Part shown: positions 6,618-56,139 of the stretch, piece after piece
Position numbering within the stretch: position 1 is the first letter of the stretch
How the letters are laid out: each line of letters begins with the position of its first letter
Assembly: GCA_964518565.1 (NCBI GenBank)
Contig: CAZFGX010000001.1
Location: 203,046 to 267,045, forward strand
Source of the DNA: an uncultured Gammaproteobacteria bacterium
GTDB lineage: Bacteria; Patescibacteriota; Microgenomatia; CAZETR01; Amesbacteraceae
Direction: 5' to 3'
Length of the DNA: 64,000 nucleotides
The notes under the pieces: generated by a model
The model's input: only the letters and a program-made list of their open reading frames with translations
Database searches by the model: none
Told to the model about the DNA's origin: nothing
Translations under genes and position numbers: made by a program

Positions 6618-6618
6618 T

Positions 6619-33382: not shown

Positions 33383-33386
33383 ATAT

Positions 33387-34148: not shown

Positions 34149-35643
34149 AAATCGTCTATCGATAATAAATATCAGTATTATTATTGGAATAATTGCAGTT
34201 GGGGCATTTTTACGATTAACAAATCTCAATGCGATACCGGTTTTTGCGGACGAATCTATTTACATACGCTGGTCTCAAGTAATGAAATCAGAATCGACAC
34301 TGCGTTTTTTGCCACTGTCGGATGGGAAACAGCCATTATATATGTGGACAGTAATGCCTTTTTTAAAATTAATTTCAGATCCACTTATTGCCGCAAGAAT
34401 AGTATCTGGTTTCTGTGGGATTGTTACAACAATTGGCGTTGGACTTGCTGCCTGGTTATTATTTAAAAATAGACGAGTAGCATTTTTATCTGCAGCCATC
34501 TGGTCGGTACTACCCTATGCTGTATTCTTCGAGCGTTTGGCTCTAGCTGATGCAATGTTGGCCATGTTTATTATTTGGACTTTTAATTGTATGTATATTG
34601 CTTTAAAACAAATACGATTAGATTTTGGAATGCTAGCAGGTTTTTGTTTAGGATTTGCCTGGTTAACAAAGTCGCCGGCGATGATCATATTATTACTGCT
34701 TCCTTGTTTATTAATTGTTTCAATAAACAAATCTGAGTTAATCAAACAAATTGGTATTTTGCTTGTGTGTTTTGTAATTAGTTATGTCATGTACAACATT
34801 CTCCGACTGGGGCCAGAGTTTCATATGATTGCCATACGAAATAGAGATTATATTTTTCCGTTATCTGAAATAATTCATCATCCATTAAACCCATTAATAA
34901 GCAATTTGAAAACAACTGTAATTCTTTTTGGCTATTTGCTAACTCCTGTTGGGCTATTGTTAGCATTACTAGGTATTTTAGATAGGGGAAAAAATCACAT
35001 ACCACAACGAATTTGTTTAGTTATTTTTCTGCTTTTACCAATTTTTATCCAATCAGGGATTGCAAAAACATTCACTGCTCGCTATTTACTATATACCATA
35101 CCATTTGCAGTGATTTTAATCAGTCACGCCATTGAACATATTGGTCAACACACCAAGAAACATTTTTTAGTTTTGGTAGCTGCTGCAACAGTCGTGATTC
35201 CTTCGTTATGGATAGACATCCAATTACTTACAAAACCAGAAAACGCCCCCTTGCCCAAAATCGAGCGTTCAGGATACCTTGAAGGCTGGACAGCGGGTTA
35301 TGGAATAAAGGAAATTAGTCAAAAAATAAATAATCTTCCACCAACAGAAAATATTGTAGTGGGTGCAGAAGGTTTTTTTGGAACACCATTTAGTGCGTTA
35401 CAAATTTACACTAATAATCATCCAAATATTCGCATAGTCGGAGTTGGTATATATGTAGACACTTTAAACGAAAATCTTGTCCAAGCCAAAAAGGATAATA
35501 CGGTATTTTTAGTTGTAAATTCTTCTAGGTTTCATATAGCTAATCCTGAAAAAGAGGGTCTTTTGTTGCTAGCAAGTTTCCCCAAGGCAATCCAGGCGGA
35601 TGGATCTCAAGAATTTACTCTATTTTTCCAATTAAAAAAATGA
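34135..35643 (+). CDS. ArnT/PMT-like GT-C glycosyltransferase
   Basis: 'IPVFADESIYIRWSQVM' DE motif in first loop, ~12 TM. Confidence 0.55.
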   Translation: MTINKNRLSIINISIIIGIIAVGAFLRLTNLNAIPVFADESIYIRWSQVMKSESTLRFLPLSDGKQPLYMWTVMPFLKLISDPLIAARIVSGFCGIVTTIGVGLAAWLLFKNRRVAFLSAAIWSVLPYAVFFERLALADAMLAMFIIWTFNCMYIALKQIRLDFGMLAGFCLGFAWLTKSPAMIILLLLPCLLIVSINKSELIKQIGILLVCFVISYVMYNILRLGPEFHMIAIRNRDYIFPLSEIIHHPLNPLISNLKTTVILFGYLLTPVGLLLALLGILDRGKNHIPQRICLVIFLLLPIFIQSGIAKTFTARYLLYTIPFAVILISHAIEHIGQHTKKHFLVLVAAATVVIPSLWIDIQLLTKPENAPLPKIERSGYLEGWTAGYGIKEISQKINNLPPTENIVVGAEGFFGTPFSALQIYTNNHPNIRIVGVGIYVDTLNENLVQAKKDNTVFLVVNSSRFHIANPEKEGLLLLASFPKAIQADGSQEFTLFFQLKK

Positions 35644-37295
35644 AATACCTGCTCATATTGGTAATTTTGTTGACACCTACATATAGTTTGTTATTACAGC
35701 GGGGATTTTTCCCCGTACATGACAATCTTCAACCAATGCGTCAGCTTCAGATGGAGAAATGTTTTTCAGATGGTCAGATCCCTTGTAGATGGGTTCCAGA
35801 TATGGGTAATGGATATGGCTACCCACTATTTAACTATTACCCCCCCCTTCCTTATCTACTTGGACAAGTATTCAGAATTGCTAATTTTTCATTCATAGAT
35901 ACGATAAAAGCAGTTGGTGTGACCGGATTCGTTCTTGGCGGACTTGGTATGTATTATTTAGCAAAAGAAATATGGGGTAAAAAAGCTGGCCTAATCTCAG
36001 CAATACTGTTCAGTTATGCCCCATACCATTCTGTTGACTATTTTGTTCGAGGAGCTGTAAATGAGTTTTGGGCAATGACAGCCTATCCATTAATATTTTT
36101 TCTCTTTTTAAAACTTATTAAATCATCAAGGCCAATATATGTACCATTTTGTGCTATCTCACTTGCCGTTCTGATGCTTTCACATAATTTAATGTTAATG
36201 ATTTTTATTCCATTTTTTGTTCTATGGATCACATATTGGTTAACTACCTATCCTAAAAAAAATTCATTAATATTTGTAATTGCTTCAGGACTACTTGGTA
36301 TTTCAATATCTGCATTTTTTAATATTCCGGTTTTGTTTGAGCAAAAGCTGGTACATATCGAAACATTAACAATCGGATACTTTAACTATCTGGCACACTT
36401 TGCAGATATTAAACAACTATTTTTTGAAACAAATTGGGGGTATGGAGGATCTTCCTTGGGTCATAACGATGGTCTAAGTTTTGCTCTAGGTTATGTTCAA
36501 TCTGCAGCGGCATTGGGAGGATTATTATTTGGAATATTTATAAAAAAAATCTCTGCCGACCGAAAAATAATTTTTGGCTTATTTATAAGTTTGCTTCTAA
36601 GTTTATTTATGACCCACTCACGTTCTTCATTTATCTGGGATCACATTAGGCCTCTTCAGTTCTTACAATTCCCATGGAGATTTTTGACTATTGCTGTATT
36701 TTTTGCTGGTTTGCTTGGCGGAGTTATTGCAAAAATAAATTCAAAAATTTCGATAGTTCTGATAGTAATATGTCTGATGGTAAATGGAAATTATTTTCGA
36801 CCAAGTGAATGGTATTTTGATCAAAATGATAGCCAAATGTTTTCAGGAGATTCGTGGAAAAAATTAATAACAGCAAGTATTTTTGATTATTTACCTATAT
36901 CCGCCACTCTCCCGCCTGTGAACACTGTCACAAGTCCTATTGTTTCGCTCAAAGAACCGATTTTTATCGAAGAATTAGCTCAAAAAACTAACAAGGAAGA
37001 ATATAAAATCGTTTCTTCACACAGCACAGAAATAAAATTCAATAAGTTATATTTTCCATATTGGACAGTTAGCGTAAATAACCAACCAGCAGAGCTAAAA
37101 ATTACCCCAGATGAAGGAACCTTTTCCACTACAATTCCTAGTGGAACAAATTATATTCAACTAAAATTACAAAACACTCCAATTAGACATGTTGCCAATA
37201 TTCTCTCTGTGGTCGGGATATTCGTATCAGTTTTCTGGATTGTCGCGGCTAAGTGGTCTAAAATATCAAATGTATGGAAACTGAAGTTACGCTAG
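35640..37295 (+). CDS. membrane protein of CFSD-QIPC-WVPD-GYGYPLF family (possibly YfhO-like GT-C)
   Basis: Conserved N-terminal loop shared with 52895 and 54520 genes; C-terminal 'FPYW..S.N' beta-rich domain. Confidence 0.45.
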   Translation: MKYLLILVILLTPTYSLLLQRGFFPVHDNLQPMRQLQMEKCFSDGQIPCRWVPDMGNGYGYPLFNYYPPLPYLLGQVFRIANFSFIDTIKAVGVTGFVLGGLGMYYLAKEIWGKKAGLISAILFSYAPYHSVDYFVRGAVNEFWAMTAYPLIFFLFLKLIKSSRPIYVPFCAISLAVLMLSHNLMLMIFIPFFVLWITYWLTTYPKKNSLIFVIASGLLGISISAFFNIPVLFEQKLVHIETLTIGYFNYLAHFADIKQLFFETNWGYGGSSLGHNDGLSFALGYVQSAAALGGLLFGIFIKKISADRKIIFGLFISLLLSLFMTHSRSSFIWDHIRPLQFLQFPWRFLTIAVFFAGLLGGVIAKINSKISIVLIVICLMVNGNYFRPSEWYFDQNDSQMFSGDSWKKLITASIFDYLPISATLPPVNTVTSPIVSLKEPIFIEELAQKTNKEEYKIVSSHSTEIKFNKLYFPYWTVSVNNQPAELKITPDEGTFSTTIPSGTNYIQLKLQNTPIRHVANILSVVGIFVSVFWIVAAKWSKISNVWKLKLR

Positions 37296-38755
37296 GTCAT
37301 ATTGATATAGATACGGTAAAAACCAGATCTATTAGTGGAGTTATTACACTTATCACTCGTTCATTTATTCAAAGAATTATTAGCTCTGTCGGATTTTTTT
37401 TCATATCAGTTTTTTTATCTCGTCCTGAGATTGGTATTTTTATTGCAGTTAATGATTTAGTTTCAATACTTGGATATTTTTCAGACATTGGATTAGCAGC
37501 ATCATTAATTCAAAAAAAAGATCAAATAACACGAGAAGATTTAAAAACCACCTTTACGCTTCAACAATTAATTGTCTCTAGTTTGATAATTTTAACTATT
37601 GCGGGTTCCTATTGGATATTAAAGTTTTATCAAATAGGTACAGGTGGAAGTTGGTTATTCTTTAGTTTGCTGTTAGCTTTCTTTCTAGCTTCATTAAAAA
37701 CAATCCCTTCAGTTATTCTTGAGCGACAATTAAAATTTGAAGTTTTAGCATTAGTAGAAATGGTTGAAACAGTGGTCTTCTATGTCATTGTTGTAGTGTT
37801 GGCATGGAAGGGGTTTGGTATTAGTTCTTATGCGATTGCCGTTTTAGTCAGAGGGGTAATTGGAACAACTATTCTATACAAGTTGTCACCATGGAAAATG
37901 GGGTTGGGGATATCCAAATCAAGTTTAAAAAGTCTTCTATCGTTTGGATTGCCATATCAATTCAACAGCTTAATGGCGGTAATAAAAGATAGGTTTGTAA
38001 ATATTGCTTTGTGGAAAATCGTTGGAGCAGACGGGGTGGGGATATTGGGATGGGCACAGAATTGGTCACAATTGCCACTAAGATTTGTTATGGATAATGT
38101 AACAAAAGTCACGTTCCCGGCATACGCAAGGCTTCAATCGCATCCTGATCAATTAAAAAATGCAATAGAAAAAACACTTTTCTTTATTGCATTTTTAACC
38201 TTCCCGCTCGTTGCGGGATTGGCAATTATTTCGCCAATGCTGATTCATATAATTCCTAAATATGCTAAATGGGAAGTGGCGTTGATTCCATTGATCCTTT
38301 ATTGCTTCAATAGCGCCTGGGCAAGTATATCTACACCATTAACCAATTTAATTAATGCGATGGGTAAGGTAAAAATAAATTCATATCTAATGATTATGTG
38401 GACATTGTTGACATGGATTTTGACACCTTGGTTAGCGATAAAGTACGGATATATTGGAGTTAGTTATGCTTCTGCAATAATTGCACTTTCATCAATTGTT
38501 CCAATAATTATTGCCAAAAATTTGGTAAATTTTTCACTCAAAAAAAGCGTCTTACCTCCTGTAATTGCGGTAATAATTATGTTTATGTTGGGGTGGTATC
38601 TGGTACATGCATTACCCGCAAGTATTGCGAATGTCATTGTTATAATTGTTGCTTGTTCAATCGTATATTTCAGTCTAAATATAGTATTTTTAGGCCAAAA
38701 CTTAATAGTTGACGTTAAAAAATTCTCCCATGCGTTCATTCATCGAAAAAAATAA
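37274..38755 (+). CDS. Wzx-type oligosaccharide flippase (MOP superfamily)
   Basis: ~14 TM, 'polysaccharide biosynthesis protein'-like N-terminus, C-terminal repeat of 6-TM bundle. Confidence 0.6.
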   Translation: METEVTLGHIDIDTVKTRSISGVITLITRSFIQRIISSVGFFFISVFLSRPEIGIFIAVNDLVSILGYFSDIGLAASLIQKKDQITREDLKTTFTLQQLIVSSLIILTIAGSYWILKFYQIGTGGSWLFFSLLLAFFLASLKTIPSVILERQLKFEVLALVEMVETVVFYVIVVVLAWKGFGISSYAIAVLVRGVIGTTILYKLSPWKMGLGISKSSLKSLLSFGLPYQFNSLMAVIKDRFVNIALWKIVGADGVGILGWAQNWSQLPLRFVMDNVTKVTFPAYARLQSHPDQLKNAIEKTLFFIAFLTFPLVAGLAIISPMLIHIIPKYAKWEVALIPLILYCFNSAWASISTPLTNLINAMGKVKINSYLMIMWTLLTWILTPWLAIKYGYIGVSYASAIIALSSIVPIIIAKNLVNFSLKKSVLPPVIAVIIMFMLGWYLVHALPASIANVIVIIVACSIVYFSLNIVFLGQNLIVDVKKFSHAFIHRKK

Positions 38756-40592
38756 ATTTGACTTAAGTAAATGGCTACTCATTATCTGTGGTAGTAGTAT
38801 CTGGTCAATTACTATGGTAAAAAGCGGACTTCTCACGTCGTATGGAATTGGATTTTGGGGTGCAAATGGTCACGATGGTATATGGCACATCGCCTTAATA
38901 AACTCTCTTTCAAGGTTCAGTTTGGACATGCCAATATTAGCAGGATTTAAAATACAAAACTATCATTTGGGCTTCGATTTGTTACTCGCATTTGTTCATA
39001 GAACCACACGTCTCGATAGCTCTATATTATATTTTCAGATCATTCCGCCTATTTTGGCTTTCTTGATCGGATATCTTACATATACTGTAGTATACAAATG
39101 GAAACAAGATCGTTTATCTGCGACACTTTCGACATTTTTTGTATATTTTGGTACAAGTTTAGGCTGGGTATTTAATGGTGGAGATTCGCTATTTTGGGCT
39201 CAACAAAGTTTATCAACGTTAATAAATCCTCCATTTGCTCTCTCGCTTGTGGTCTTACTTTTGGGAATTATTTTTGTCTTGCGCAAAAAATATATATACG
39301 CCAGTATATGTTTTGGGCTCTTAATTGAAATAAAAGTTTATGCAGGGCTCCTTGCATATCTCGGCTTATTAATGGCATCAGTCAAAACAAAAGAGCTACG
39401 AAAAGTTCTTTTGTTTTCCTCCTTTATTGCTTTCCCAATATTTTTAATCACAAATTCAGATTCAGCAAATCTCATCCAATTCGAACCCGGATGGTTTTTG
39501 GAAACATTGTTTGCTCCAGATAGATTAAACTGGCCTAAGTTTTTCTCAGCGTTAAATACATACCGTACAGGTGTAATTTTATACAAAGCCGTACCAGCAT
39601 ATATAGTTGCATTTGTAATTTTTTTAATTGGCAATGCAGGAATAAGAATTTTAGGCTTATGGCAAATAAAAAATAAAGACTGGTTCACAAAGTTTGGCAT
39701 AACAATAGTTGTATTTGGTAGTTTAATTCCAATGGTATTTGTCCAAAAAGGAACTCCTTGGAACACAATTCAATTTTTTTATTACTCTCTATTTTTTTTA
39801 AATATATTTACTGGAATAGTTATCTCTCAAATTTTTAAAAAAGTCACAAACAAAATTTATTTATTTACTTTTTTATCTCTTATTTTGACCATAACTATTG
39901 TAGAAATAACTCAAACACTGAAAAACTATCTACCAAGTCGACCCCCAGCAAAAATTACATACTCTGAATTATCTGCACTCAGAGAATTAAAAAAATTACC
40001 TTCAGGCACTGTATTGACTGAATTATTTGACAAATCAAAAGCAGAAGAACAAAAGAAATTTCCGCCGCGATCTTTGTCTGTATACGAATCTACTGCATAT
40101 GTATCTGCCTATTCAGCACAAGAAACATATCTAGAAGATGAGGTGAATTTATCTATAACAGGCTACAACATAGAGGAACGTAAAATACGTATAAAAAATT
40201 TTTTTGAGAATCCAAACTCACAATTCCTTCGAGATGAAAATATTAAATATATATATTTAATATCAATACCTAAATTCAATTATGAATTAATTCCAGGAGT
40301 TTCATATATCTACAAAAATTCAGAATATTCAATACTAAAATTTGATTCACAAATAGCTGAAAGAGTAAAAATTTCGAAACAAATGGCTATAAATATGGTA
40401 GGTCAATTGCCTCAAGTAAAATCTGCTACAAGCATCGAAGCAGACATGTTTGACTCTTCTAATATCTCTTGGAAAATAAAAGTCTCTTTTGCAAATTCCC
40501 TAATACTATTTTATAAAATAGATGGTCAAACTGGTGTTGTATCAGACTGGTCTTCAAATAGACCAATTACTCCGCTCGCTCCACAGAACTAA
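38730..40592 (+). CDS. large polytopic membrane protein with C-terminal soluble domain (candidate polymerase/GT-C)
   Basis: ATG 38730; ~14 TM then ~200 aa hydrophilic tail. Confidence 0.4.
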   Translation: MRSFIEKNKFDLSKWLLIICGSSIWSITMVKSGLLTSYGIGFWGANGHDGIWHIALINSLSRFSLDMPILAGFKIQNYHLGFDLLLAFVHRTTRLDSSILYFQIIPPILAFLIGYLTYTVVYKWKQDRLSATLSTFFVYFGTSLGWVFNGGDSLFWAQQSLSTLINPPFALSLVVLLLGIIFVLRKKYIYASICFGLLIEIKVYAGLLAYLGLLMASVKTKELRKVLLFSSFIAFPIFLITNSDSANLIQFEPGWFLETLFAPDRLNWPKFFSALNTYRTGVILYKAVPAYIVAFVIFLIGNAGIRILGLWQIKNKDWFTKFGITIVVFGSLIPMVFVQKGTPWNTIQFFYYSLFFLNIFTGIVISQIFKKVTNKIYLFTFLSLILTITIVEITQTLKNYLPSRPPAKITYSELSALRELKKLPSGTVLTELFDKSKAEEQKKFPPRSLSVYESTAYVSAYSAQETYLEDEVNLSITGYNIEERKIRIKNFFENPNSQFLRDENIKYIYLISIPKFNYELIPGVSYIYKNSEYSILKFDSQIAERVKISKQMAINMVGQLPQVKSATSIEADMFDSSNISWKIKVSFANSLILFYKIDGQTGVVSDWSSNRPITPLAPQN

Positions 40593-40914
40593 TTCTAACC
40601 AATACTTGACCTGAAGCGTTAATACTAACAGAACCAGTAACTTTTACCGGTCTATCTGTAAAATGAACTAGACTCGTACTGTTCTCACCGTCTATGCGGG
40701 CGACGCTAGTTTTTCCTTCCTTGATTTTATAAAGATAATATCCCGGACCTGTATCATAATCTTGAGCTCCATGAATAATATAAGTTGCGCCCTGCTCAGT
40801 AAGAGACCATTGTTCACGACTTGAAACTTCACTTTTTCTATTGCGAAAAATTAGTAACCCTGAAAAAATTAAGGCCAGAGCAAGACAGACAATAAACACT
40901 TTTTTCATAGCCAC
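40567..40914 (-). CDS. small secreted/anchored hypothetical protein
   Basis: 115 aa with N-terminal TM; convergent overlap with upstream gene. Confidence 0.35.
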   Translation of the reverse strand: MAMKKVFIVCLALALIFSGLLIFRNRKSEVSSREQWSLTEQGATYIIHGAQDYDTGPGYYLYKIKEGKTSVARIDGENSTSLVHFTDRPVKVTGSVSINASGQVLVRISSVERAE

Positions 40915-40944
40915 ACTTACGATGATACAATAATATGTATTGAT

Positions 40945-42755: not shown

Positions 42756-43504
42756 AACTGACCGCAGTTGTCATTACAAAAAATGAACAGGCAATGATCG
42801 AAGATTGCCTCAAATCAATTCAATTTGTGGACCAAATTCTAGTTGTTGATACTGGAAACACTGACGCGACAAATAAAATATCGCAAAAATTTGGCGCAAA
42901 AATTATTAAATCAGTTGGAAAAAATTATTCAGACTATCGTAATGACGGATTGAGTCAGGTAAACACGGATTGGGTGTTATATGTCGATGCAGACGAACGA
43001 GTTTCTCCAGAATTGGCCAAAGAAATTTTAGAAAAAACTTCGGTCACCCAAAAGAATAATTGCTTCCTTATACCGCGAATGAATAATTATTTGGGTAAAT
43101 TTATGAAATATGGCGGATGGGGAGGGGAAAAAATACCTAGGCTATTTAAAAAAGAAGCATTAAAAAAATATACAGGTGATTTACACGAACAACCTATTTA
43201 TGTCGGTTCGACAGGTGAAATGAAGCATTCACTTTTGCACTACTCACATCGAGACATCTCATCTATGGTCGAAAAAACGATTAAGTTTACAGAGTTTGAA
43301 GCAAAATTACGTTTAGATTCAAACCATCCCCCCGTAGTTCCATGGAGAATAATCAGAGTTATGATTACAGAATTTTGGAAGAGATTTATCAAATATTCAG
43401 CTTGGCGAGATGGATATGCAGGTGTTGTTGATGGACTGTTTCAAGTATTCAATATGTCAATTATTTATTCACGCTTATGGGAAATGCAGCAAAAAAAGTC
43501 CTAA
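42752..43504 (+). CDS. glycosyltransferase family 2
   Basis: 'TAVVITKNEQAMIEDCL', 'VVDTGNTDAT', 'YVDADERV'. Confidence 0.7.
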   Translation: MKLTAVVITKNEQAMIEDCLKSIQFVDQILVVDTGNTDATNKISQKFGAKIIKSVGKNYSDYRNDGLSQVNTDWVLYVDADERVSPELAKEILEKTSVTQKNNCFLIPRMNNYLGKFMKYGGWGGEKIPRLFKKEALKKYTGDLHEQPIYVGSTGEMKHSLLHYSHRDISSMVEKTIKFTEFEAKLRLDSNHPPVVPWRIIRVMITEFWKRFIKYSAWRDGYAGVVDGLFQVFNMSIIYSRLWEMQQKKS

Positions 43505-44517: not shown

Positions 44518-45710
44518 AAAAAATTAGCAACTCCATAAAATTATTTTTTTGCGTTGGATTGGTTTTACGACTAATTAGTATGCCATTCACGTATCATCCT
44601 GATCTTCATGGACACTACCTCGGATCATGGTTGATGGTTAAAAAATCGGCATTATTAACCATGTACGACTACATTAGTCATCAACCAAGAAATAGTCAGA
44701 TAGTGAAAATATATGGGGATGATTTTTTCGTATATGGCCCAATGACATATTGGACACACGCAATTTGGCTTACATTGGTAAACCCAATTATTGATTGGAA
44801 TTTATTTAATAATTTTGAAACTAATTACGACATTGCAGAACAGTCATCTCAGTTGCCTTGGTTAATATTTATTCTAAAAACTCCCTATTTATTGGCAGAT
44901 ATCGGCTTATTAATATTGCTAATGAAAATAGCTCCAGAGTCCATGAAATCCAAAATTGTTTTATTGTGGGCATTCAATATTCCTATAATTCATTCGGCAT
45001 TTCTAATGGGTCAATTCGATATATTTATTGCTCTCGGGATACTCGCTGCGGTGTACGCATCCCAAAAAAATCATCCCTTTCTGGCTAGTGTATTTCTTGG
45101 AATTTCAGCTGCATTTAAACCGTTTCCGCTTTTTTTGTTGCCATTTGTACCAAAAACCTCATGGAAAAACGTTGTAATTGGAGTAGCAACATATTCAATA
45201 ATTATTTTGCCCTACATTCTTACATCACCCGGCTTTAGGATGTTTGCCCTTTCTGCTCAACAAAGCAGTAAACTCTGGGAAGCACATATTCCAGTATCAG
45301 CTACCCAATCAGTTGTCATATTTTTTGCATTATTAGGATTATTTGCCTGGATAAAAAAAGATCATCCAGAAAAAATGTCGCAAGTGGGTTGGTTTGCAGT
45401 TCCATTATTACTTTTTTATGGTTTGACCCATTTTCACCCACAATGGATTTCCTGGATTAGTCCAATATTGTTGCTCATCTACGCCCGTGAATCAAAATTG
45501 CGACTTGCTATATTGACCATATTGGGTTGTTGGATATTAATTACGTTGTCATTTGAACCTTCACTGCATACAGGTCTTTTTGGTTTCCCCATAAACCTTA
45601 AGCCGTACCTAAATGACCAGGCTGTATCATTTGTTAGGTCTATTCTAGCCGCAACCACTAGTTATTTTATTTATAACCTATTTATTCAAAATAAATCAGA
45701 AGTTACTTGA
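44514..45710 (+). CDS. polytopic membrane protein, GT-C-like (DUF2029/GT87-like)
   Basis: 398 aa, ~11 TM. Confidence 0.45.
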   Translation: MKKISNSIKLFFCVGLVLRLISMPFTYHPDLHGHYLGSWLMVKKSALLTMYDYISHQPRNSQIVKIYGDDFFVYGPMTYWTHAIWLTLVNPIIDWNLFNNFETNYDIAEQSSQLPWLIFILKTPYLLADIGLLILLMKIAPESMKSKIVLLWAFNIPIIHSAFLMGQFDIFIALGILAAVYASQKNHPFLASVFLGISAAFKPFPLFLLPFVPKTSWKNVVIGVATYSIIILPYILTSPGFRMFALSAQQSSKLWEAHIPVSATQSVVIFFALLGLFAWIKKDHPEKMSQVGWFAVPLLLFYGLTHFHPQWISWISPILLLIYARESKLRLAILTILGCWILITLSFEPSLHTGLFGFPINLKPYLNDQAVSFVRSILAATTSYFIYNLFIQNKSEVT

Positions 45711-46570
45711 AACAAGGCTTGTTTATAATAATTTCGTTGCTGAGGTTTTAAAATCATTCGTAAACTACATCCTAGAAGTATGGCAAATAATAAAAAGGGC
45801 TTGTGCCATCCAGGATTATGTTTTTCAAACCAATATTTCCAACCATTAATTTCGCCGATTACAGCAGGAGATCTATCTGAAGAACTTCCACCAAGTGCAT
45901 GTATACATTGGGCAATAGGTAAATACCATATTTGATATTTAGCCTTCTTGCAACGATATAGCCATTCTATTTCTTCGCCATACATGAAAAATTTTCCATC
46001 AAAACCTTCTGTTGTCAAAAATACTGATTTCCGTAAGAATAAAAACGCTCCTGTTACCCAGTCCGCTCGCTTTGGTGAATAATAACGTTGCGTGCTTCGT
46101 ATATGAATTGAATCAATGTATTCTCGTATCAAAGGCAAATTATCCAAAAAAAACATCATTTGAAATATTCGTCGTAATGTCGGGAAATATCCCCAAGAAG
46201 ATTGAATCGTGCCATCGGTATTTAATAATTGACAGCCAGCAATATCCACATCTTGGTGTGCGATAAAATATTCATAAAACAATTGAATCGTATCTTCAAA
46301 AACATAGGCATCGCTATTTAGTAAAAGTAATAAATCACCCTTAGCATTTCTCATCCCTTGGTTGTTCCCAAGTGCAAAACCAACATTGTCAGAGTTTTTA
46401 ATCAACTGAACTTGTGGAAAATCTTTTTGAATCATTTCTAGACTTCCATCCGTTGATGCGTTGTCGACAACAATAGTTTCAAATTCACCAAAAGTCGATC
46501 GATATAAGCACTCCAGGCATTTACGAGTTTTATCTAGGGTATTGAATGAAAGGATAATAACTGACAACAT
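45686..46570 (-). CDS. glycosyltransferase family 2
   Basis: 'LSVIILSFNTLDKT', 'VVDNASTDGS', 'LLLNSDAYV'. Confidence 0.7.
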   Translation of the reverse strand: MLSVIILSFNTLDKTRKCLECLYRSTFGEFETIVVDNASTDGSLEMIQKDFPQVQLIKNSDNVGFALGNNQGMRNAKGDLLLLLNSDAYVFEDTIQLFYEYFIAHQDVDIAGCQLLNTDGTIQSSWGYFPTLRRIFQMMFFLDNLPLIREYIDSIHIRSTQRYYSPKRADWVTGAFLFLRKSVFLTTEGFDGKFFMYGEEIEWLYRCKKAKYQIWYLPIAQCIHALGGSSSDRSPAVIGEINGWKYWFEKHNPGWHKPFLLFAILLGCSLRMILKPQQRNYYKQALFQVTSDLF

Positions 46571-46591
46571 AGTAAGAAGTATAATATAAAA

Positions 46592-48208
46592 ATGTCATTC
46601 ATATTGTTTTTGCTGCTAATAATCTCAAGTATAGTTCGTACAGTTGCCCCAACAGTTAGTCCACCAGAACTGTTTGGTGACGAGGTAGATGTGGGTTATC
46701 AGGCATACAGTCTTCTAAAAACTGGTAAAGATGTCAGAAATTACCCCGTACCCTTATATGTTCATTCACTATCAGAGTCTAGAGCTCCGTTGCTCATCTA
46801 TGCTACTGTTCCAAGTATTTTGATTTTTAAAAATACTATTGTGGGCGTTCGAGCTCCAGAATATATATTTGGCAGTTTGGCGCCAATAATTTCTGTCTGT
46901 TTGGCGTATAAGCTTACCCGATCCAAAAAAATAAGCCTTCTTACTGGTTTTTTTCTTGCCACATTACCATGGCACATTCATTATTCTAGATCTGCCTTTG
47001 AAGTAGTAATAATGCTCGATCTAATCATGGCAGGAACTACACTACTTTTGTCACAAAAAAGGATCCTCGGCGTCGTTCTCTTATTTTTATCAATGTATAC
47101 ATATAGCACTGCGGTGATATTCGCTCTTTGTTTATTTTTTGGTTTGTGGATATTGATTCCTAAAATACGCCACAAAACCACTTTTGTAGCTGCCTTGATA
47201 ATGTGCCTTCCTCTAATATTTAATCTCATTCAAGGATCGGCTAGTCAGCGTTTTAGTATACTGAGTATTTTTAATGAAAACGAGCAAATAAAAACTATCA
47301 CAGAACTTCGATCTGTCGATCTATCTGTTTGGGCTAAAATTTGGCATAACAAAGCTCAATCACTAGTCTATAAATTTTTGAGCAACTATTTTCAATCATT
47401 CTCCACTGATTTTCTCTTTGTAAGAGGTGATCCAACCCTGCGACATGGAATAGGTCAAATAGGAAATTTCTTATCTATTACCGCCCCTTTAATATTGATG
47501 GGTTTTGTGAGATTTTTGAAAAAAAGATTAATGATTCCAATCTTGTGGTTCATCTTGGCTCCTATTCCTGCCGCCCTCACGGTAGATGGGGGGTACCACG
47601 CCACTCGTTTATTTTTGCTCGTTTTCCCGCTAGTTTTAGCTATGGGACTAGGTGTGATCGAATGTATTCATTTTTTTAATAACAAAAAAATTTCTTATTC
47701 ACTATTAAGTCTTTTTGCAATAATTTTTTGCTACCAGTTTGGTTGGTATACACATTACTACTATGTACACTATCCTACTGCTTCTTGGCGCTGGTGGCAT
47801 GTAGGTTTTTCAAAAACGTTTACTGAAGTATCAAAAATTCAAGATCAATACACACGTGTTTTTATAAACAACACATATGAACCAGCGTTAATTAGATATT
47901 TGTTTTACTCTGAATATGATCCAAAAAGGTTTCACCAAACATTTTCAAACGATCAACCACAGACAAATATATTAAAAGGGTATGATGGCTTTACTCTTGA
48001 TAATAAAATATTTTTCGGTACATTCCACGACAAAGGTGGCGATATCCAAAACAAACTCAGCCCTCGAAGTCTATATATCCTTAGTCAGCGAGATGATGTT
48101 GGTGGCAACTGGGACTGGCGTAAATCCCCCCCAGCAGGGATCAAAGTAATCGATACCATTACAGATCCATACAATGACCCCATATTTTATTTAATAAAAA
48201 AAGAATAG
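46592..48208 (+). CDS. PMT/ArnT-like GT-C glycosyltransferase (DE-motif family)
   Basis: 'GDEVDVGYQAYSLLKTGKD', 12+ TM, C-terminal soluble domain. Confidence 0.55.
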   Translation: MSFILFLLLIISSIVRTVAPTVSPPELFGDEVDVGYQAYSLLKTGKDVRNYPVPLYVHSLSESRAPLLIYATVPSILIFKNTIVGVRAPEYIFGSLAPIISVCLAYKLTRSKKISLLTGFFLATLPWHIHYSRSAFEVVIMLDLIMAGTTLLLSQKRILGVVLLFLSMYTYSTAVIFALCLFFGLWILIPKIRHKTTFVAALIMCLPLIFNLIQGSASQRFSILSIFNENEQIKTITELRSVDLSVWAKIWHNKAQSLVYKFLSNYFQSFSTDFLFVRGDPTLRHGIGQIGNFLSITAPLILMGFVRFLKKRLMIPILWFILAPIPAALTVDGGYHATRLFLLVFPLVLAMGLGVIECIHFFNNKKISYSLLSLFAIIFCYQFGWYTHYYYVHYPTASWRWWHVGFSKTFTEVSKIQDQYTRVFINNTYEPALIRYLFYSEYDPKRFHQTFSNDQPQTNILKGYDGFTLDNKIFFGTFHDKGGDIQNKLSPRSLYILSQRDDVGGNWDWRKSPPAGIKVIDTITDPYNDPIFYLIKKE

Positions 48209-48211
48209 CTT

Positions 48212-49471: not shown

Positions 49472-50658
49472 ACCAAAAAAAAATTATCTGGACTTGTATT
49501 GGGCTTCGAATAATATTTGCGACCATTTTTTTTCACCCGGATATAAAAAGTCAGCATTTCCATGCTAGCTTGTTTGTAAAAAATAATCTAATCAATATCT
49601 ATGATTACCTAGAATTATCGCGAAACACATTACCATACTCCGATACGTTTAATTATCCGCCGCTCACATATTATTTTCTTGCATCATGGCAAAAAATCAT
49701 CACTACCGCCAGTCTACAAAACTGGCTTTGGGATTGGAGTGAATATGCTATTCAAAATAAAGATATCTACACACATTTATTGCTATTAAAATTACCCTAC
49801 CTCATTTTTGACTTACTATTAATTACGGTTTTGTTGACCCAAACAAAAAAAACTGCCGAAAAGAATGCGTTGATATATCTATGGGGATTTAATCCCATCA
49901 GTCTCTATGCGATATATATGATCGGTCAATTTGATATTTTGCCAGCATTGTTAACATGTTTGTCATACATATTAATGAAAAAATCCAAATATTTTTTGTC
50001 AGGTCTGTGTCTAGGCTTAGCGGCGGCCACCAAAACATATCCATTACTGTTAATACCTCTCTTTTTAGTTACGTATCGGTCAACAAAAGCTTCTGCCCAA
50101 TTGATAATTGGTGCTGTGATTGGTTGGCTGGGACCAAATATATATTTTTTAAATTCAATCGGATATCAACATAGTGTTCTACAATCTTCGTTGGCCGTCC
50201 GTTTATTTGCGGTTGGTATAAACATTAAAAATATTCACATCCCGTTATATCCAATATATTATCTCGCGATCTTGGCAGCAGCAATTCGAAAAAAGATAGA
50301 CGATGTAGTATTTTACTGTTTTTTGATTACTTTCTCACTCGTGGTGTTTACTGAATTTCATGCACAGTGGTTAGTATGGAGTTTGCCCTTTTCCCTTTTG
50401 GTATGTATTAAATATCCAAAAATAAAACTCTTACTTGTTGCCCAATATCTAATAGCAATGATCGTTGTTTTTCTCATACGTGATCAGTTTGTACTTATCG
50501 GACTATTTACTCCATTGAATCCTTATTTAGCTACCATTCCTCCGTTGTCATCATTTATACCGTCGGCTGAAAAAATACAAATAATTTTGCGTTTAATATT
50601 AGCGACAATCTCTATTTCTACGTTTATAAAATATCATCTCACCCCAAAAAATGTATAA
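49444..50658 (+). CDS. polytopic membrane protein, GT-C-like
   Basis: Internal ATG 49444 chosen (track 49342 extension has no hydrophobic start and overlaps upstream gene). Confidence 0.4.
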   Translation: MEKSKTQSINQKKIIWTCIGLRIIFATIFFHPDIKSQHFHASLFVKNNLINIYDYLELSRNTLPYSDTFNYPPLTYYFLASWQKIITTASLQNWLWDWSEYAIQNKDIYTHLLLLKLPYLIFDLLLITVLLTQTKKTAEKNALIYLWGFNPISLYAIYMIGQFDILPALLTCLSYILMKKSKYFLSGLCLGLAAATKTYPLLLIPLFLVTYRSTKASAQLIIGAVIGWLGPNIYFLNSIGYQHSVLQSSLAVRLFAVGINIKNIHIPLYPIYYLAILAAAIRKKIDDVVFYCFLITFSLVVFTEFHAQWLVWSLPFSLLVCIKYPKIKLLLVAQYLIAMIVVFLIRDQFVLIGLFTPLNPYLATIPPLSSFIPSAEKIQIILRLILATISISTFIKYHLTPKNV

Positions 50659-51298
50659 AGCTTTCTCTCTCATATTCATGTACTTGGCAATTATTTTAAT
50701 CTGTCTAGGAATTTTTTCATTATTTTTTGTTCGAAGAATCCAAGAATTCAACCAAGCAGTGGTTGACCGATTTGTTCCAATCACAAAAACTCATCCGGTT
50801 ACCCAAACTATTACTCCTCAGCATAATGGGTTAAATGTAATAGTAATTTTTTTAAAAAATGGTGGTATTAGAAATACAGAAGAATTTATATTTACAGTAT
50901 TAAATACAAAAAATGAGCCTATACGAAAAATTCTTTTATCAGGATCAAATATTGGCGATGGAGAAACAGTTCGATTTCAGTTTGATCCAATAGCAAACTC
51001 AGCTAATCAAATATTCAAGGTCAAGCTTGAAGCCCCAAAAACTGACTTTAGCCATCCATATATAGAAGCAGGATTTTCAAATACAGATACCTACAAACTT
51101 GGCCAATCTGAAGATATAAACACTCCAGGAGATCTATCGTTTCAAATTTATTATCATCCAAATAGTAAGTTGTCTATGGTATATGAAATTAGTCAGTTGA
51201 TAAGTCAAAAAATCTCTTTAAGACTCCTAGTCTCCAATCTAATAGTGATAGTTTCATGTGCAGTGACAATGAAATTGGTAAAATGGGATGATATATGA
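50651..51298 (+). CDS. membrane-anchored hypothetical protein
   Basis: N-terminal TM then beta-rich region. Confidence 0.35.
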   Translation: MYKAFSLIFMYLAIILICLGIFSLFFVRRIQEFNQAVVDRFVPITKTHPVTQTITPQHNGLNVIVIFLKNGGIRNTEEFIFTVLNTKNEPIRKILLSGSNIGDGETVRFQFDPIANSANQIFKVKLEAPKTDFSHPYIEAGFSNTDTYKLGQSEDINTPGDLSFQIYYHPNSKLSMVYEISQLISQKISLRLLVSNLIVIVSCAVTMKLVKWDDI

Positions 51299-52902
51299 AA
51301 TACCTACTGTTGGCAGTCGTTTTGGGAAGCATGCTAAGGCTAGTGTATATAACCCAACTCCCGAGTGGATTTACCCCAGATGAGGCTGCTTTTGGCTATA
51401 ATGCATATAGTCTTGGACAAACCGGTCGTGATGAATGGAGCACACCCTTTTGGCAGCTACCCCTAACCAATCTCAGATCATTTGGAGACTACAAGCTACC
51501 GTTGTATGCTTTTTTGGCAGTCCCCACCATAAAAATATTTGGTTTAAACGAATTTGCTACTCGTCTACCTAACTCAATAATCGGTATATTCTCTATTATT
51601 ACAACGGCTATATGTGCAAGCAAGCTATTCCCAACCAATAAGCGTATCATGCCTATTGCCTCATTTGCAGTCGCCCTATCACCGTGGTCTGTTCAACTAT
51701 CTCGTGGAGCATTTGAAGCAAATCTAGTTACCTGTTTTTTCCCTTTAGCCATTAGCCTATGGCTATCAAAAAAATCACTCCTTGCCGTATTGATGTTTGG
51801 AATAAATTTTTATTCGTATCACAGTGCAAGACTACTAACACCAATTTATTTTGCGTCTATATTTTTATATAAAAAGCCAGCCAACTGGATCAGAAGTATA
51901 ATTTTATTGGTGTGTTTAGTATTTCCAGGAATAATTGCACAATTTTTTTCAGCAAACACGCGTATTGCAGATGTTTCTATCATCTCACCTACAGACAAGT
52001 GGCAAGCCGTTAGTGATCGTCGATATGATAGTGTTGCTTTTGGAGAGCCAGACAAGCTTGCCAGATTTTTTTCAAACAAATTTACATACGTTGTATCTTT
52101 AGTAAAACACAACGTTATTCAGTACATTTCACCAGAATTTTTATTTACCAATGGTCCTGCGGAATCGACATATGGAATGATTCGTGGCAGGGGGGTCTTG
52201 TATGGCATAGAAGGAATTGGCCTAATCTCCTTCTTTGTTATGTTGTGTATAAAGCCAAATAAAACTCAGAGTTTTATTCTTGGCATGTTACTTATTTGTG
52301 CAGTACCCGCGGCATTAGCAAAAGGTCCAGGATATGCCGCCAATAGATCCGTCTCTATGCTTCCATTTTTTCTTATAGCCAGTTCATACGGTTTTTCAAT
52401 ACTAATAAAAAACATTCAAAAGTATAAAAAAATAGTAATTCTTACAGTTTTTATTACCTATACAATTGAATCACTTTTTTTCGTCGAAGATTATGTAATT
52501 CACAGCCCTCGTCAAACAGCAAGTAGTATGAATTACGGCTGGAAAGAAGCATTTGCTCGAACTGTACCAGCGATTGCTCGGTTATCTCATATATATATAG
52601 ATACTGCTCTCTCCGAACCTCATATATTTGCGGCCTTCTATTTAAAGATCCCGCCCCAAACATACCATCGTTATTCAAAATCTTGGACAGATTTCAATCA
52701 AAAGGGGATAAGGTTTTTAGATCAACTCGATGGATATCAATTAGAAAATATGACATTCGGACATGCCGACAAAGCAATCAACGATTCTAAATATCAACTA
52801 ATTATGGCAAAGACATCGGAAATATCTAATCAAGCAAATGAGCTATTCCGTATTAATTATCCGAATGGTCATCCGGCAATATCTGTAATTTCAAATGAAT
52901 AA
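51295..52902 (+). CDS. PMT/ArnT-like GT-C glycosyltransferase (DE-motif family)
   Basis: 'PDEAAFGYNAYSLGQTGRDEW', 'GDYKLPLY', 'GLNEFATRLPN'. Confidence 0.55.
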   Translation: MKYLLLAVVLGSMLRLVYITQLPSGFTPDEAAFGYNAYSLGQTGRDEWSTPFWQLPLTNLRSFGDYKLPLYAFLAVPTIKIFGLNEFATRLPNSIIGIFSIITTAICASKLFPTNKRIMPIASFAVALSPWSVQLSRGAFEANLVTCFFPLAISLWLSKKSLLAVLMFGINFYSYHSARLLTPIYFASIFLYKKPANWIRSIILLVCLVFPGIIAQFFSANTRIADVSIISPTDKWQAVSDRRYDSVAFGEPDKLARFFSNKFTYVVSLVKHNVIQYISPEFLFTNGPAESTYGMIRGRGVLYGIEGIGLISFFVMLCIKPNKTQSFILGMLLICAVPAALAKGPGYAANRSVSMLPFFLIASSYGFSILIKNIQKYKKIVILTVFITYTIESLFFVEDYVIHSPRQTASSMNYGWKEAFARTVPAIARLSHIYIDTALSEPHIFAAFYLKIPPQTYHRYSKSWTDFNQKGIRFLDQLDGYQLENMTFGHADKAINDSKYQLIMAKTSEISNQANELFRINYPNGHPAISVISNE

Positions 52903-54547
52903 AGCCCGACATCTAATTATCCTCCTACTAATTATCCTTCCGACAATTTCATCGCTGATGCGACCAGGTTTCTTTCCAATACAAGATAAAATGCAGCATT
53001 TTCGCATATACCAGATGTCTAAATGTTTTTCGGATTTGCAAATTCCATGCCACTGGGTACCAGATTTAGGTTACGGATATGGCTATCCATTATTTCTGTT
53101 TTATGCACCTGGACCGTTTTACATAGGTGCCTTAATGCATAGTGTAGGAGTTCAATATATTGATGTGGTGAAATTATTATTTGTAATAGGAGTTTTTAGT
53201 TCCAGTGTATGTATGTATCTTGCAGTAAAAAAAATCTTTAGTTCATCTTCGGCCGGTGTTATTGCTGCAACGTTGTACGCATACACTCCGATAAAAGCGT
53301 CTGAAATATATGTTCGTGGTTCGTTGAGTGAGTTTCTATCCTTTATTTTTTTTCCATTACTCTTTTGGTCATTAGTAAAAGATGAAAAAGCTACCCCTTC
53401 AATAAATTTCGCCTTTACATTATCTGTTGCAGCCCTCTTACTAACTCACAATCTCATGGCTTTTATATTTATTCCCATTGCATGTGTGTGGGCAATAGTA
53501 ATTTCTCGTTCAAAGCCTGGAGGTTATTTAACCAACCAAGCCATTTCACTTCTTTTAGGATTTGGCGTATCTAGTTTTTTTCTTTTGCCACTGCTTTTTG
53601 AAAAACAATTTATACACACAGAAAGTCTCACGAGTGGCTATTTCGGCTATCTTCAACATTTTGTATCGTTATATCAGCTCTTTATATCAAATCACTTTGG
53701 ATATGGATCATCTCAGCTTGGAATGGGAGATGATATCACTATTTCGTTAGGACATGTTAATTGGGTCTTAGGTTTGGTGGGAGTTATGCTAGCGTTGAAA
53801 AATTTTCGTGACCGATTGTCAAAAGCGGTGTTGGCAATAGCTGCTATCGTGTTAATGATAATTTTTCTGATGCATCAACGGTCTACCCCAATTTGGGAAA
53901 TTATTACTCCACTTCAGTTTTTACAATTCCCCTGGCGCTTGCTAGTAATTACTTCATTTTTATTATCACTAATTGCAGGCTACGTAGTTTCGAAAATCTA
54001 TAACAAAACAATAATGGCAGCAACGATATTGGTTATTTTTTTATTGTATGGCAATTTCTTTCAGCCCAAGAGCTGGGAGAACACTTCGGATAAAATAGAG
54101 TTTTCAGGTCAAAAATTTTTAGATCAAATGACAATAAGTATTTTTGATTACCTCCCGATATCAGCAAAATTTCCACCAAACAAAATTGCTCCGCCCGAAC
54201 CTGAAATTATTTTGGGAGATGCGTCTATTAGTTCTTACGAAAAAAAATCAGATTCTCAATCAGGTAAAATAGAAGTATTGTCTTCACAAGCCACAATTCG
54301 TGCTCCACTTTTTCAATTCCCTGGTATGCAAGCTCGTATTGATAATCAACCTGTACAAATACAAAGTAATTGCACAAACCAGCCATACTGTTTTGGTTTA
54401 ATAACCATTGACGTGCCTTATGGAGAGCATCAGATTGACTTCGTTTTAAAAAACACACCCATTAGATCGCTGGGCAACTTGATCAGTCTGAGTTCGTTAA
54501 TTTTTATCATTGGTGCCACATGTCGAAAAAAATATTTTTCACACTAA
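52895..54547 (+). CDS. membrane protein of CFSD-QIPC-WVPD-GYGYPLF family
   Basis: 'MSKCFSDLQIPCHWVPDLGYGYGYPLF', 'FPGMQARIDNQPV'. Confidence 0.45.
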   Translation: MNKARHLIILLLIILPTISSLMRPGFFPIQDKMQHFRIYQMSKCFSDLQIPCHWVPDLGYGYGYPLFLFYAPGPFYIGALMHSVGVQYIDVVKLLFVIGVFSSSVCMYLAVKKIFSSSSAGVIAATLYAYTPIKASEIYVRGSLSEFLSFIFFPLLFWSLVKDEKATPSINFAFTLSVAALLLTHNLMAFIFIPIACVWAIVISRSKPGGYLTNQAISLLLGFGVSSFFLLPLLFEKQFIHTESLTSGYFGYLQHFVSLYQLFISNHFGYGSSQLGMGDDITISLGHVNWVLGLVGVMLALKNFRDRLSKAVLAIAAIVLMIIFLMHQRSTPIWEIITPLQFLQFPWRLLVITSFLLSLIAGYVVSKIYNKTIMAATILVIFLLYGNFFQPKSWENTSDKIEFSGQKFLDQMTISIFDYLPISAKFPPNKIAPPEPEIILGDASISSYEKKSDSQSGKIEVLSSQATIRAPLFQFPGMQARIDNQPVQIQSNCTNQPYCFGLITIDVPYGEHQIDFVLKNTPIRSLGNLISLSSLIFIIGATCRKKYFSH

Positions 54548-56139
54548 TAATTTGCATTCTACCGTCTTGTATCGCTCTAATGCATTCAGGATATTATGGG
54601 GCTTCTGATGATTTGCATATTGGCTGGCTTCAACAAATGCATAAGACAGTTACTGCTGGATTTATACCACCCAGATATGTTCCTGACTTAAGCTATGGGT
54701 TTGGCTACCCCTTATTCAATTTTGTCTTTCCATTACCGTTTTATCTTGGAGAGATAGTACATGCATTTGGATTCACTCTTGTAGATAGTATTAAAGTTGT
54801 TTTCGCTCTTAGTATAATTCTTTCCGGCCTTTTCATGTATTGGTCCATGCGCAAGGTTTTTTCTAATGCTGCAAGTTTTATAGCTACTATTTTATATATT
54901 TATACGCCATACAGAGCAACAGAAATTTATATTAGAGGAGCTATTGGAGAAGCTTTTGCATTTGTTTTTTTCCCACTTATTGTTGGTGGGCTAATAGCTC
55001 TAGTCAAAAATAATACAAATAAAAATTTAGCAATAGTTGCAATAGGGGTAGGGTTATTAGTTTTAAGCCACAACATTAGTGCATACATGTTCATTCCTTT
55101 TGCAGTGCTATTAGGTATTATCCTGCAACCAAAAAAGCCTCAAACATGGATTTATCCATTACTTCTCGGTTCGACAATTAGTATGTATTTTTGGTTACCC
55201 GCACTCAGAGATAGTCGTTTGCTAGTCTACGACACCGTCTTTAATTATTGGGATCACTTTCCCACACTGAAACAATTATTGATTCCAAACTGGGGGTGGG
55301 GAGCATCAGTGCCTGGTCCATATGATGGTATGTCGTTTTTTATCGGTACGGTAAATTTGTGTGTTTTAATTATTTCAATACCGCTATTTTTCTTCCTAAA
55401 TAAAAAATTCAGCCAGATTCAATCAAAGATATTTATATGGGCAATATTAGCCTTTGTTGTAGCCTTTGTCTGTATGAATTTTCGTTCAGCAGTTTTTTGG
55501 GAGGTAGTGCCATTAATTAAATACTTTCAATTCCCTTGGCGATTTTTACTTGTAACCTCTTTTTGTTCATCGATAATTGCCGCATTGGTCGTCGAACATC
55601 TAAAACTTCCCAAATATATGGTCTTAATTCTTCCTTTGTTGCTAATTGGTACTGAAAGCTGGAAATTTAATCCACATGATTTTCTTGCAAGGCAGGACAA
55701 TTATTATCTTAATAGATATATTCCATACCCTTTTGCAAGTTATGAATATACTCAAACCAGTGAGGAATATTTACGTCTTCCAAAAAACACTCAAATACGA
55801 CCAAATAAAATATTTCCAAGATTTTATTCTGACAATATCCAAATAAATCAGTTAGATATAGAAAATGATTTCTCTGCTTCGGTAAACATTACTTCACCTG
55901 AAAACGGATCAATAAATTACAACAAATATGCATTTCCTGGGTGGAAAGCTAAATTAGATGGAGAGATGGTAAGAATCAATCCTGGGGAACCATTTGGCCA
56001 AATAAATATTTCCATACCTGCTGGTACACACAATCTTCACGTCTTTTACGAAGAGCCTAAACAAAACTGGCCATTAGACATCATGTCTGCTATGGCATTA
56101 ATATATACTATTTTTAGATTGATATATGCAAAAAAATAA
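54520..56139 (+). CDS. membrane protein of the same family (tandem paralog)
   Basis: 'YVPDLSYGFGYPLFNFVFPLPFYLG', 'FPGWKAKLDGEMV'. Confidence 0.45.
   Translation: MSKKIFFTLIICILPSCIALMHSGYYGASDDLHIGWLQQMHKTVTAGFIPPRYVPDLSYGFGYPLFNFVFPLPFYLGEIVHAFGFTLVDSIKVVFALSIILSGLFMYWSMRKVFSNAASFIATILYIYTPYRATEIYIRGAIGEAFAFVFFPLIVGGLIALVKNNTNKNLAIVAIGVGLLVLSHNISAYMFIPFAVLLGIILQPKKPQTWIYPLLLGSTISMYFWLPALRDSRLLVYDTVFNYWDHFPTLKQLLIPNWGWGASVPGPYDGMSFFIGTVNLCVLIISIPLFFFLNKKFSQIQSKIFIWAILAFVVAFVCMNFRSAVFWEVVPLIKYFQFPWRFLLVTSFCSSIIAALVVEHLKLPKYMVLILPLLLIGTESWKFNPHDFLARQDNYYLNRYIPYPFASYEYTQTSEEYLRLPKNTQIRPNKIFPRFYSDNIQINQLDIENDFSASVNITSPENGSINYNKYAFPGWKAKLDGEMVRINPGEPFGQINISIPAGTHNLHVFYEEPKQNWPLDIMSAMALIYTIFRLIYAKK

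Follow-up and report, generated by a model that had tools for sequence, protein, structure and literature searches.

Three paralogous membrane proteins and their relatives

The window analyzed here is a 64-kb stretch (64,000 nucleotides, G+C content of about 35%) of contig CAZFGX010000001.1 that encodes three polytopic membrane proteins, which are candidate glycosyltransferases of the glycosyltransferase C (GT-C) fold class. Paralog A (35640-37295, + strand, 551 amino acids) is a candidate GT-C-fold membrane glycosyltransferase of the PF10131 type. Paralog B (52895-54547, +, 550 amino acids) falls into a separate deep clade of the neighbor-joining tree, and paralog C (54520-56139, +, 539 amino acids) is the most divergent of the three and lacks Cys41 and Cys49. 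The three open reading frames (ORFs) are intact. Pairwise protein comparison revealed full-length homology between A and B (37% identity, E = 5e-113), A and C (29%, E = 4e-67), and B and C (32%, E = 3e-74), which bears out an earlier note, made from the sequence without database searches, that had described three paralogs with the last two in tandem. B and C overlap by 28 nt, and A starts 4 nt before the upstream gene ends; overlaps of 4-28 nt with neighboring genes are found in A, B, and C alike, as in tightly packed operons. A tblastn search and a motif scan of the 64-kb window recovered exactly three copies, and no fourth copy was found there.

More than 2,300 relatives of A were detected, the best of which were 46-49% identical and originated from Amesbacteria and other Microgenomates (Patescibacteria, candidate phyla radiation, CPR). 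A protein identical to A is encoded on an NCBI contig of 1,001,365 bp. A family profile searched against 1.84 billion representatives returned 17,932 matches at E ≤ 1e-3 and 5,655 at E ≤ 1e-30. When one genome per species was scanned, 80 related loci were recovered, and those with informative titles all belonged to Microgenomates (Amesbacteria, Daviesbacteria, Woesebacteria, Shapirobacteria, and Blackburnbacteria). Many records of metagenome-assembled genomes (MAGs) among loci L003-L081 are titled "uncultured Gammaproteobacteria bacterium" and carry the typical Microgenomates gene cluster; these labels seem to be either placeholders or mistaken. In a neighbor-joining tree of 98 family members, A, B, and C were placed in separate deep clades, each common to several Microgenomates lineages. 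The paralogy of A, B, and C is ancient, because each deep clade includes members from other lineages.

A matched Pfam PF10131 (PTPS_related) at 36.4 bits against a gathering score of 26.4. PF10131 is a member of GT-C clan CL0111 and is of unknown function (PMC7801869). The family, which the earlier note had left unassigned, falls at the margin of PF10131, with A above the threshold and B and C below it. C gave sub-threshold matches to PF10131 (13.8 bits) and to PMT_2 (PF13231; 18.6 bits, gathering score 26.1), and B gave no Pfam match even at E ≤ 1. PMT_2 matched neither A nor B; its threshold was passed by the homolog P0008 (31.6 versus 26.1 bits). STT3 (PF02516) matched A alone, at 19.9 bits against a gathering score of 24.5. 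YfhO (PF09586) matched none of A, B, and C, and the scores of four inspected homologs ranged from 16 to 21 bits (gathering score 28.5). Three of these matches lay on the "FPGW" beta region (residues ~457-518, aligned to profile positions 765-825 of 835) and the fourth was collinear on the transmembrane (TM) core; the beta-region matches agree with the YfhO-like C-terminus that had been suspected from the sequence. Among 38 family members, matches at E ≤ 0.01 were obtained to PF10131 in 23, to YfhO in 10, and to PMT_2 in 8. NCBIfam contained no family for A, B, or C. Using hhalign, residues 65-223 (TM2-TM6) were aligned to the two PMT_2-type families of the window with probabilities of 87% and 95% (E of 4e-6 to 6e-8), and R137 and E142 were aligned with the R...E/D of these families. 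Some family members carry the annotation "glycosyltransferase family 39 protein."

Distant relatives were also found in Enterococcus. A 560-amino-acid E. faecalis protein that has the same layout and length matched PF10131 at 30.9 bits, over profile positions 1-300 only, and has R137, E142, H182, W333, QFPWR, and P419 in common with the window proteins; it also has a GGYGY-like stretch. Relatives of about 550 amino acids are encoded in OR846609.1 (L083, "Enterococcus phage Efs 1-1-1," UNVERIFIED_ORG) and on an E. hirae plasmid (L082, NZ_CP068116.1, 104034-105677), the latter annotated as a hypothetical protein and without a Pfam match. The motif QFPWR is kept in the Enterococcus relatives. A tblastn search against phages had returned two "Enterococcus phage" matches, and a phage link was rejected because the flanking ychF, DUF1129, and guaB genes point to host chromosome in an unverified record.

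Predicted fold and conserved residues

An AlphaFold2 model of A was built from a 38-sequence alignment (pLDDT 89.7, pTM 0.90). It consists of TM1 (residues 2-19), a first loop (EL1, residues 20-84) with helices at residues 31-43 and 70-80, and ten TM helices after this loop, the last of which ends at about residue 385. These are followed by an extracytoplasmic C-terminal segment (residues 386-513, 128 amino acids; 36795-37178, +), in which DSSP delimited a beta-sandwich (residues ~430-510) including F472-P473, and by the terminal TM12 (residues 514-550). The model and the positive-inside pattern agree on 12 TM helices (11 in the core and 1 at the C-terminus), in line with the approximately 12 that had been counted from the sequence. 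Predicted cytoplasmic loops hold Lys/Arg clusters, and the invariant polar residues are all found on the predicted outer face.

Foldseek matches of this model in the PDB at E ≤ 0.03 were GT-C enzymes only, most of them at probability 1.00. These included AglB, STT3, PglB, AftD (TMq up to 0.48), ArnT, AftA, Emb, and ALG12, with AglB and STT3 as the best matches (E = 1.3e-4). The beta-sandwich gave local matches to glycoside hydrolase beta-sandwich domains over 105 columns. A search of PDB sequences with A found nothing relevant (chance ferritin matches at E~0.1), and the family profile had zero PDB matches at E ≤ 10. The earlier note had considered a GT-C-type class probable and had proposed a structural comparison with PglB and ArnT, among others. 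Both enzymes are among the matches, and the class is supported by the Foldseek matches, the PF10131 score of A, and the hhalign alignments to the PMT_2-type families. The profile and structure searches gave no assignment to a well-characterized family with a non-glycosylation role.

The GT-CA class has a conserved seven-TM N-terminal module and a two-helix first loop, the first helix of which bears the catalytic base (PMC13503287). In the model of A, EL1 contains two helices, with D28 at the N-terminal end of the first, and the Foldseek matches at probability 1.00 were all GT-CA structures. This conserved acid, D28, at the start of loop 1 is predicted to face the outside and to have a catalytic role. 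D28 belongs to an H-D-D position directly after TM1 (codons for D28-N29 of A at 35721-35726, +) and is D in 94 of 94 ungapped sequences among the 98 family members, which makes it the only fully conserved acid of the loop; D29 is conserved in 91 of 98. The position of D28 is that of the DE motif after TM1 in the other GT-C families of the window, and D28 would be the catalytic base on the strength of this conservation pattern. The "VPD" aspartate D54 was ranked below D28 as a catalytic residue, because several homologs have H, V, N, or E instead.

The loop that the earlier note had called invariant exists in all three paralogs, as RWVPDMGNGYGYPLFNYYPPLPY in A, HWVPDLGYGYGYPLFLFYAPGPFY in B, and RYVPDLSYGFGYPLFNFVFPLPFY in C, with the common core [WY]VPD-x3-G[YF]GYPLF-x-[FY]-x2-P-x-P[FY]. 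It is not invariant, since it varies among A, B, and C and since "VPD" changes in homologs; Amesbacteria-type homologs have VTH, TPV, SKN, or GKE in its place. The GYGYPLF core was located by motif scan at 35811-35831 in A, at 53075-53095 in B, and, as GFGYPLF, at 54697-54717 in C (all +). Within it, G60, P62, and F64 are conserved in 99-100% of the 98 members, and D54 precedes it at 95%; GYPLF as a whole and the prolines close to it show conservation of about 100%. Other residues conserved at 94-100% in this set are R137, E142, P150, H182, N183, P230, E234, H253, W266, D277, W333, Q343-F-P-W-R347, D397, D416, P419, and F472-P473. The family-invariant QFPWR motif lies at the outer end of TM10 (A 36666-36680, B 53924-53938, C 55528-55542, all +). 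D28, R137, E142, H182, H253, D277, and R347 form a strictly conserved ring on the outer face that is kept in A, B, and C.

C41 and C49 are both present in 91 sequences and both absent in 6, all of which belong to clade C. This co-variation suggests a C41-C49 disulfide, and hence that loop 1 is extracytoplasmic, as the positive-inside pattern also indicates and as had been assumed for the N-terminal loop; both D28 and the Cys41/Cys49 pair had been overlooked by the earlier note. The beta-rich C-terminal domain described there was recovered in the model, and its supposed "FP(G/Y)W...DG" motif was not, as the paralogs read FPYW..NN (A), FPGM..DN (B), and FPGW..DG (C), with only F472-P473 near-invariant. 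A short insertion with two Cys (C-x6-8-C) is found in the beta-sandwich of B, its closest orthologs (L026), and the fusion protein P0133. Sequence comparison placed this pair of B at about 54350-54400 (+, residues ~487-497), and it may form a second extracytoplasmic disulfide limited to that sub-clade.

Gene neighborhood and domain fusions

A lies in a conserved gene order that is kept across Microgenomates. It begins with a glycosyltransferase family 2 (GT2, GT-A fold) gene (33321-34148, +; Glycos_transf_2), which is a candidate polyprenyl-phosphate-sugar synthase supplying the donor and which in NCBIfam is most similar to PgfS, ArnC, PpgS, AglJ, and dolichyl-P-hexose transferase. A PMT_2/PMT-type GT-C gene (34135-35643, +; assigned from Pfam and synteny) is located immediately upstream of A, and a Wzx/MOP-type flippase gene (37274-38755, +; Polysacc_synt_3 at 143 bits, NCBIfam MOP flippase) immediately downstream. 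In the 80 Microgenomates loci, the PMT_2 gene is the immediate upstream neighbor in 55, the Wzx flippase is the immediate downstream neighbor in 55, and a 33321-like GT2 occurs upstream in 66, with two copies in 25. Two or three family genes stand in tandem in 12 of these loci. The locus therefore encodes together a GT2, a flippase, and a GT-C protein, the combination that marks multi-component systems for transmembrane glycosylation.

In other genomes, GT2 enzymes were found fused to the family domain. P0123 combines a 33321-type GT2 with a family-A domain (37% identity, E = 2e-55). P0125, P0133, P0142, and P0175 have an N-terminal GT2 of the type encoded at 45686-46570 (-) in front of the family domain (32-34% identity, E of 1e-34 to 1e-38), and this is a B-type domain in at least P0133. 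The window itself encodes a GT2 fused to a GtrA/DPMS TM domain (26033-27169, +, 378 amino acids) of the polyprenyl-phosphate-sugar synthase type, and its sequence indicates that polyprenyl-phosphate-sugar donors are made in this locus. A GT2 is likewise fused to a PMT_2-type GT-C domain at 28301-30484 (727 amino acids), and in both window fusions donor synthesis is physically coupled to membrane steps.

A further GT-C-fold protein is encoded downstream of the flippase (38709-40592, +, 627 amino acids). It had no Pfam or NCBIfam match, and its model (pLDDT 89.0) matched yeast STT3 (E = 1.7e-7), PglB (E = 2e-5), and AftA (TMq 0.50). The protein has a mixed alpha/beta C-terminal domain and an invariant "GFWGxNGHDGIWH" after TM1, and it is kept downstream of the flippase across loci, where most homologs are about 540 amino acids long. 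On the basis of its model, a role as an oligosaccharyltransferase-like enzyme in Microgenomates is possible.

The window forms a glycosylation island, with GT2 genes at 6598, 26033, 28301, 33321, 40945, 41850, 42752, 45686 (-), and 60889. Also present are GT1/GT4 genes (43477, 61662), GT87-like genes (44514, 49342), one ALG6/PIG-U-like gene (48212), and PMT_2-type genes (30481, 34135, and 59277). The last of these also belongs to a second family of five polytopic paralogs of about 530 amino acids (24-34% identity; 46592-48208, 51295-52902, 56126-57682, 57679-59277, and 59277-60887), which have weak or borderline PMT_2 matches and an "xDE(A/V)xxGYNAYS" motif after TM1. Members of this family are interleaved with B and C, and in other Microgenomates loci the A/B/C family is flanked by homologs of this second family. 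The paralogous polytopic membrane proteins encoded at 27141-28235 (-) and 62720-63826 (+) are 32% identical and had no Pfam match even at E ≤ 1; homologs of the former recur beside the glycosylation cluster in several loci. An initiating phosphoglycosyltransferase was not recognized in the 64-kb window. Three further unassigned polytopic membrane proteins (1333, 2906, and 4545) adjoin a cellulose-synthase-like GT2 (6598) in the region 1333-8097. The neighboring region 8104-15218 encodes an HlyD-like protein (8104), a GH81 beta-1,3-glucanase-like protein (8889), and a surface protein of 1476 amino acids with six PA14 domains as well as GSDH and PKD domains (10788).

Proposed mechanism and alternative explanations

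Very probably, A, B, and C are glycosyltransferases that depend on lipid-linked sugars and decorate the cell surface from the outside of the membrane. More specifically, we consider it likely that they are ancient paralogs of one GT-CA membrane glycosyltransferase family at the edge of PF10131, with a compact YfhO-like layout and a polyprenyl-phosphate-sugar mechanism. A polyisoprenyl-phosphate donor is inferred because of the synteny with GT2 genes (66 of 80 loci) and the GT2 fusions. The combination of a GT-A enzyme, a flippase, and a GT-C enzyme is known from multi-component transmembrane glycosylation systems (PMC8035078, PMC11127046), such as CsbB/GtcA/YfhO, GtrB/GtrA/Gtr*, GacI/GacK/GacL, and ArnC/ArnT (PMC8035078, PMC11127046, PMC5836110). 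In the proposed mechanism, a cytoplasmic GT2 (of the 33321 type, or of the 45686 type for some members) would transfer the sugar of a nucleotide sugar to polyprenyl phosphate, and the lipid-linked sugar would be flipped to the outer leaflet, possibly by the adjacent Wzx-type protein or a GtrA-domain protein. Within A, B, and C, the catalytic base would be Asp28, where loop 1 begins, and R137/E142, H182/N183, H253, and QFPWR (343-347) would line the site for the donor phosphate and the sugar. The beta-sandwich may help to hold the acceptor as an acceptor-binding module, and A, B, and C would differ in acceptor, position, or sugar.

Several observations weigh against this assignment. The PF10131 match of A covers profile positions 1-300 of 621 only (residues 64-380), B and C reach no Pfam threshold, and the YfhO and STT3 matches are all below the gathering score. 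The NCBIfam scores of the 33321 product are far below every cutoff, and a crude hydropathy scan found no TM helix in it, so that its function as a polyprenyl-phosphate-sugar synthase is that of a candidate. The literature searched contained no experimentally characterized member of PF10131, which is listed as "function unknown," or of the A/B/C family, and nothing specific on GT-C enzymes or glycosylation in CPR/Patescibacteria was found there. Some of the fusions could be gene-calling artifacts, yet five independent cluster representatives at 50% identity show the fusion.

The proteins resemble several known systems and differ from each of them. Besides the above-threshold score of A, the likeness to PF10131 includes the residues shared by the E. 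faecalis protein of the same layout, whereas the Pfam model does not extend to TM1 and loop 1 of A, which hold D28 and GYGYPLF. Members of the YfhO family (CsbB-YfhO of B. subtilis and S. aureus, PgtC2 of S. pyogenes, and PgfM1 of S. mutans) are likewise polytopic GT-C candidates in which a large extracytoplasmic segment separates the last two TM helices (PMC5836110 for YfhO, the AlphaFold2 model for A), and their genes also adjoin a GT2 that makes a C55-phosphate-linked sugar donor. However, this segment comprises about 128 amino acids in A versus 389 in B. subtilis YfhO (PMC5836110), that is, three times fewer, and A, B, and C have about 550 amino acids compared with 835 positions in the YfhO profile. 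A, B, and C also differ from YfhO in having a conserved acid in loop 1; for YfhO, a conserved DXD motif was not found in the large extracellular loop examined (PMC5836110). With the PMT_2/ArnT/GtrII-type enzymes (GtlB, GacL, and ArnT), the family shares homologous TM2-TM6, the aligned R...E pair, an acidic motif after TM1, and the association with a GT2 and a flippase, which is also of the Wzx type in GacI/GacK/GacL (PMC8035078). In contrast, loop 1 reads H-D-D...C...C...GYGYPLF in A/B/C and DE...Y in these enzymes, and A/B/C have an extra C-terminal beta-sandwich and terminal TM helix.

A less probable explanation, although one with the same fold and donor type, is that A, B, and C are protein O-glycosyltransferases similar to PMT, PgfM1, and PgtC2, whose targets would be Ser/Thr in proteins of the surface or membrane, for example pilins or S-layer proteins. 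PgtC2 and PgfM1 of the YfhO family glycosylate Ser/Thr-rich regions of membrane proteins (10.1101/2024.05.05.592596). In addition, PMT_2 is matched by 8 of the 38 family members, and the window encodes large secreted proteins, including the 1476-amino-acid PA14/PKD protein. The sequence offers no feature that tells a protein from a glycan acceptor, but the conserved neighbors (the Wzx flippase, soluble GT2/GT1 enzymes, and the oligosaccharyltransferase-like GT-C protein) favor a lipid-linked or polymeric glycan, and no candidate substrate gene is conserved beside the family.

It is improbable that A, B, and C act as oligosaccharyltransferases or ligases, with en bloc transfer of a preassembled oligosaccharide from polyprenyl diphosphate to a protein or lipid, as in STT3, AglB, and PglB. 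These enzymes, together with mycobacterial AftD and AftA, are the best structural matches (probability 1.00, TMq 0.40-0.48) and share the conserved N-terminal GT-CA module and the two loop 1 helices (PMC13503287). The STT3 score of A (19.9 of the 24.5 bits needed) and the Wzx flippase directly downstream of A also fit en bloc transfer. Identity, however, is only 12-14%, and the C-terminal module of A/B/C is different and much smaller. The oligosaccharyltransferase family is defined by a WWDYG-type motif. In A, B, and C, the C-terminal domain is a small beta-sandwich, and no WWDYG-type or WWD motif is present. En bloc transfer is less likely because of this missing domain and because the 38709 product is the better oligosaccharyltransferase-like candidate, its STT3 match extending over about 590 aligned columns. 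Moreover, three tandem paralogs fit linkage-specific transferases better, and the GT2 fusions and synteny fit monosaccharide-phosphate donors, so that the donor of A/B/C is probably a monophosphate-linked single sugar and not the diphosphate-linked oligosaccharide of STT3, AglB, and PglB.

A non-catalytic GT-C-like function (flippase-associated factor, scaffold, or transporter) or a pterin-related one, to which the Pfam name (6-pyruvoyl-tetrahydropterin synthase, PTPS) and weak matches of other GT-C proteins of the window to the "flippase activity-associated protein Agl23" model might point, is highly improbable because the acidic, basic, and His residues of the outer face are conserved in A, B, and C in a ring typical of an active site. 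A role as pterin synthase was rejected, as no PTPS catalytic domain was detected in A, B, or C by Pfam or NCBIfam.

Under the preferred assignment as lipid-sugar-dependent GT-CA glycosyltransferases, the A/B/C family is a very large, mainly Microgenomates, uncharacterized branch of a known enzyme class that is already partly captured by PF10131, and not a new kind of system. A bolder and more tentative proposal is that the locus with A/B/C, the five-member family, and the oligosaccharyltransferase-like protein lacking a Pfam match might be a bacterial counterpart of the ALG steps in the lumen of the endoplasmic reticulum or of mycobacterial arabinan assembly. The A/B/C family would then be a new CAZy-level glycosyltransferase family, in which the disulfide-braced "HDD...C...C...GYGYPLF" loop serves for catalysis and donor binding. 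Recognizing GT-C enzymes from sequence is difficult. The analysis supplies this family with a fold and a topology, proposes D28, R137, E142, H182, H253, and R347 as its active site and the 33321-type GT2 as the partner that makes its donor, and thereby allows straightforward biochemical testing. The enzymology itself is expected and not surprising; the interest lies in these testable predictions of active site and partner and in the density of GT-C genes. At least 16 GT-C-fold genes are present in 64 kb of a CPR genome represented by a matching contig of about 1 Mb, which shows that a large share of a tiny genome is given to extracytoplasmic glycosylation and bears on how episymbiotic bacteria build their cell surface.

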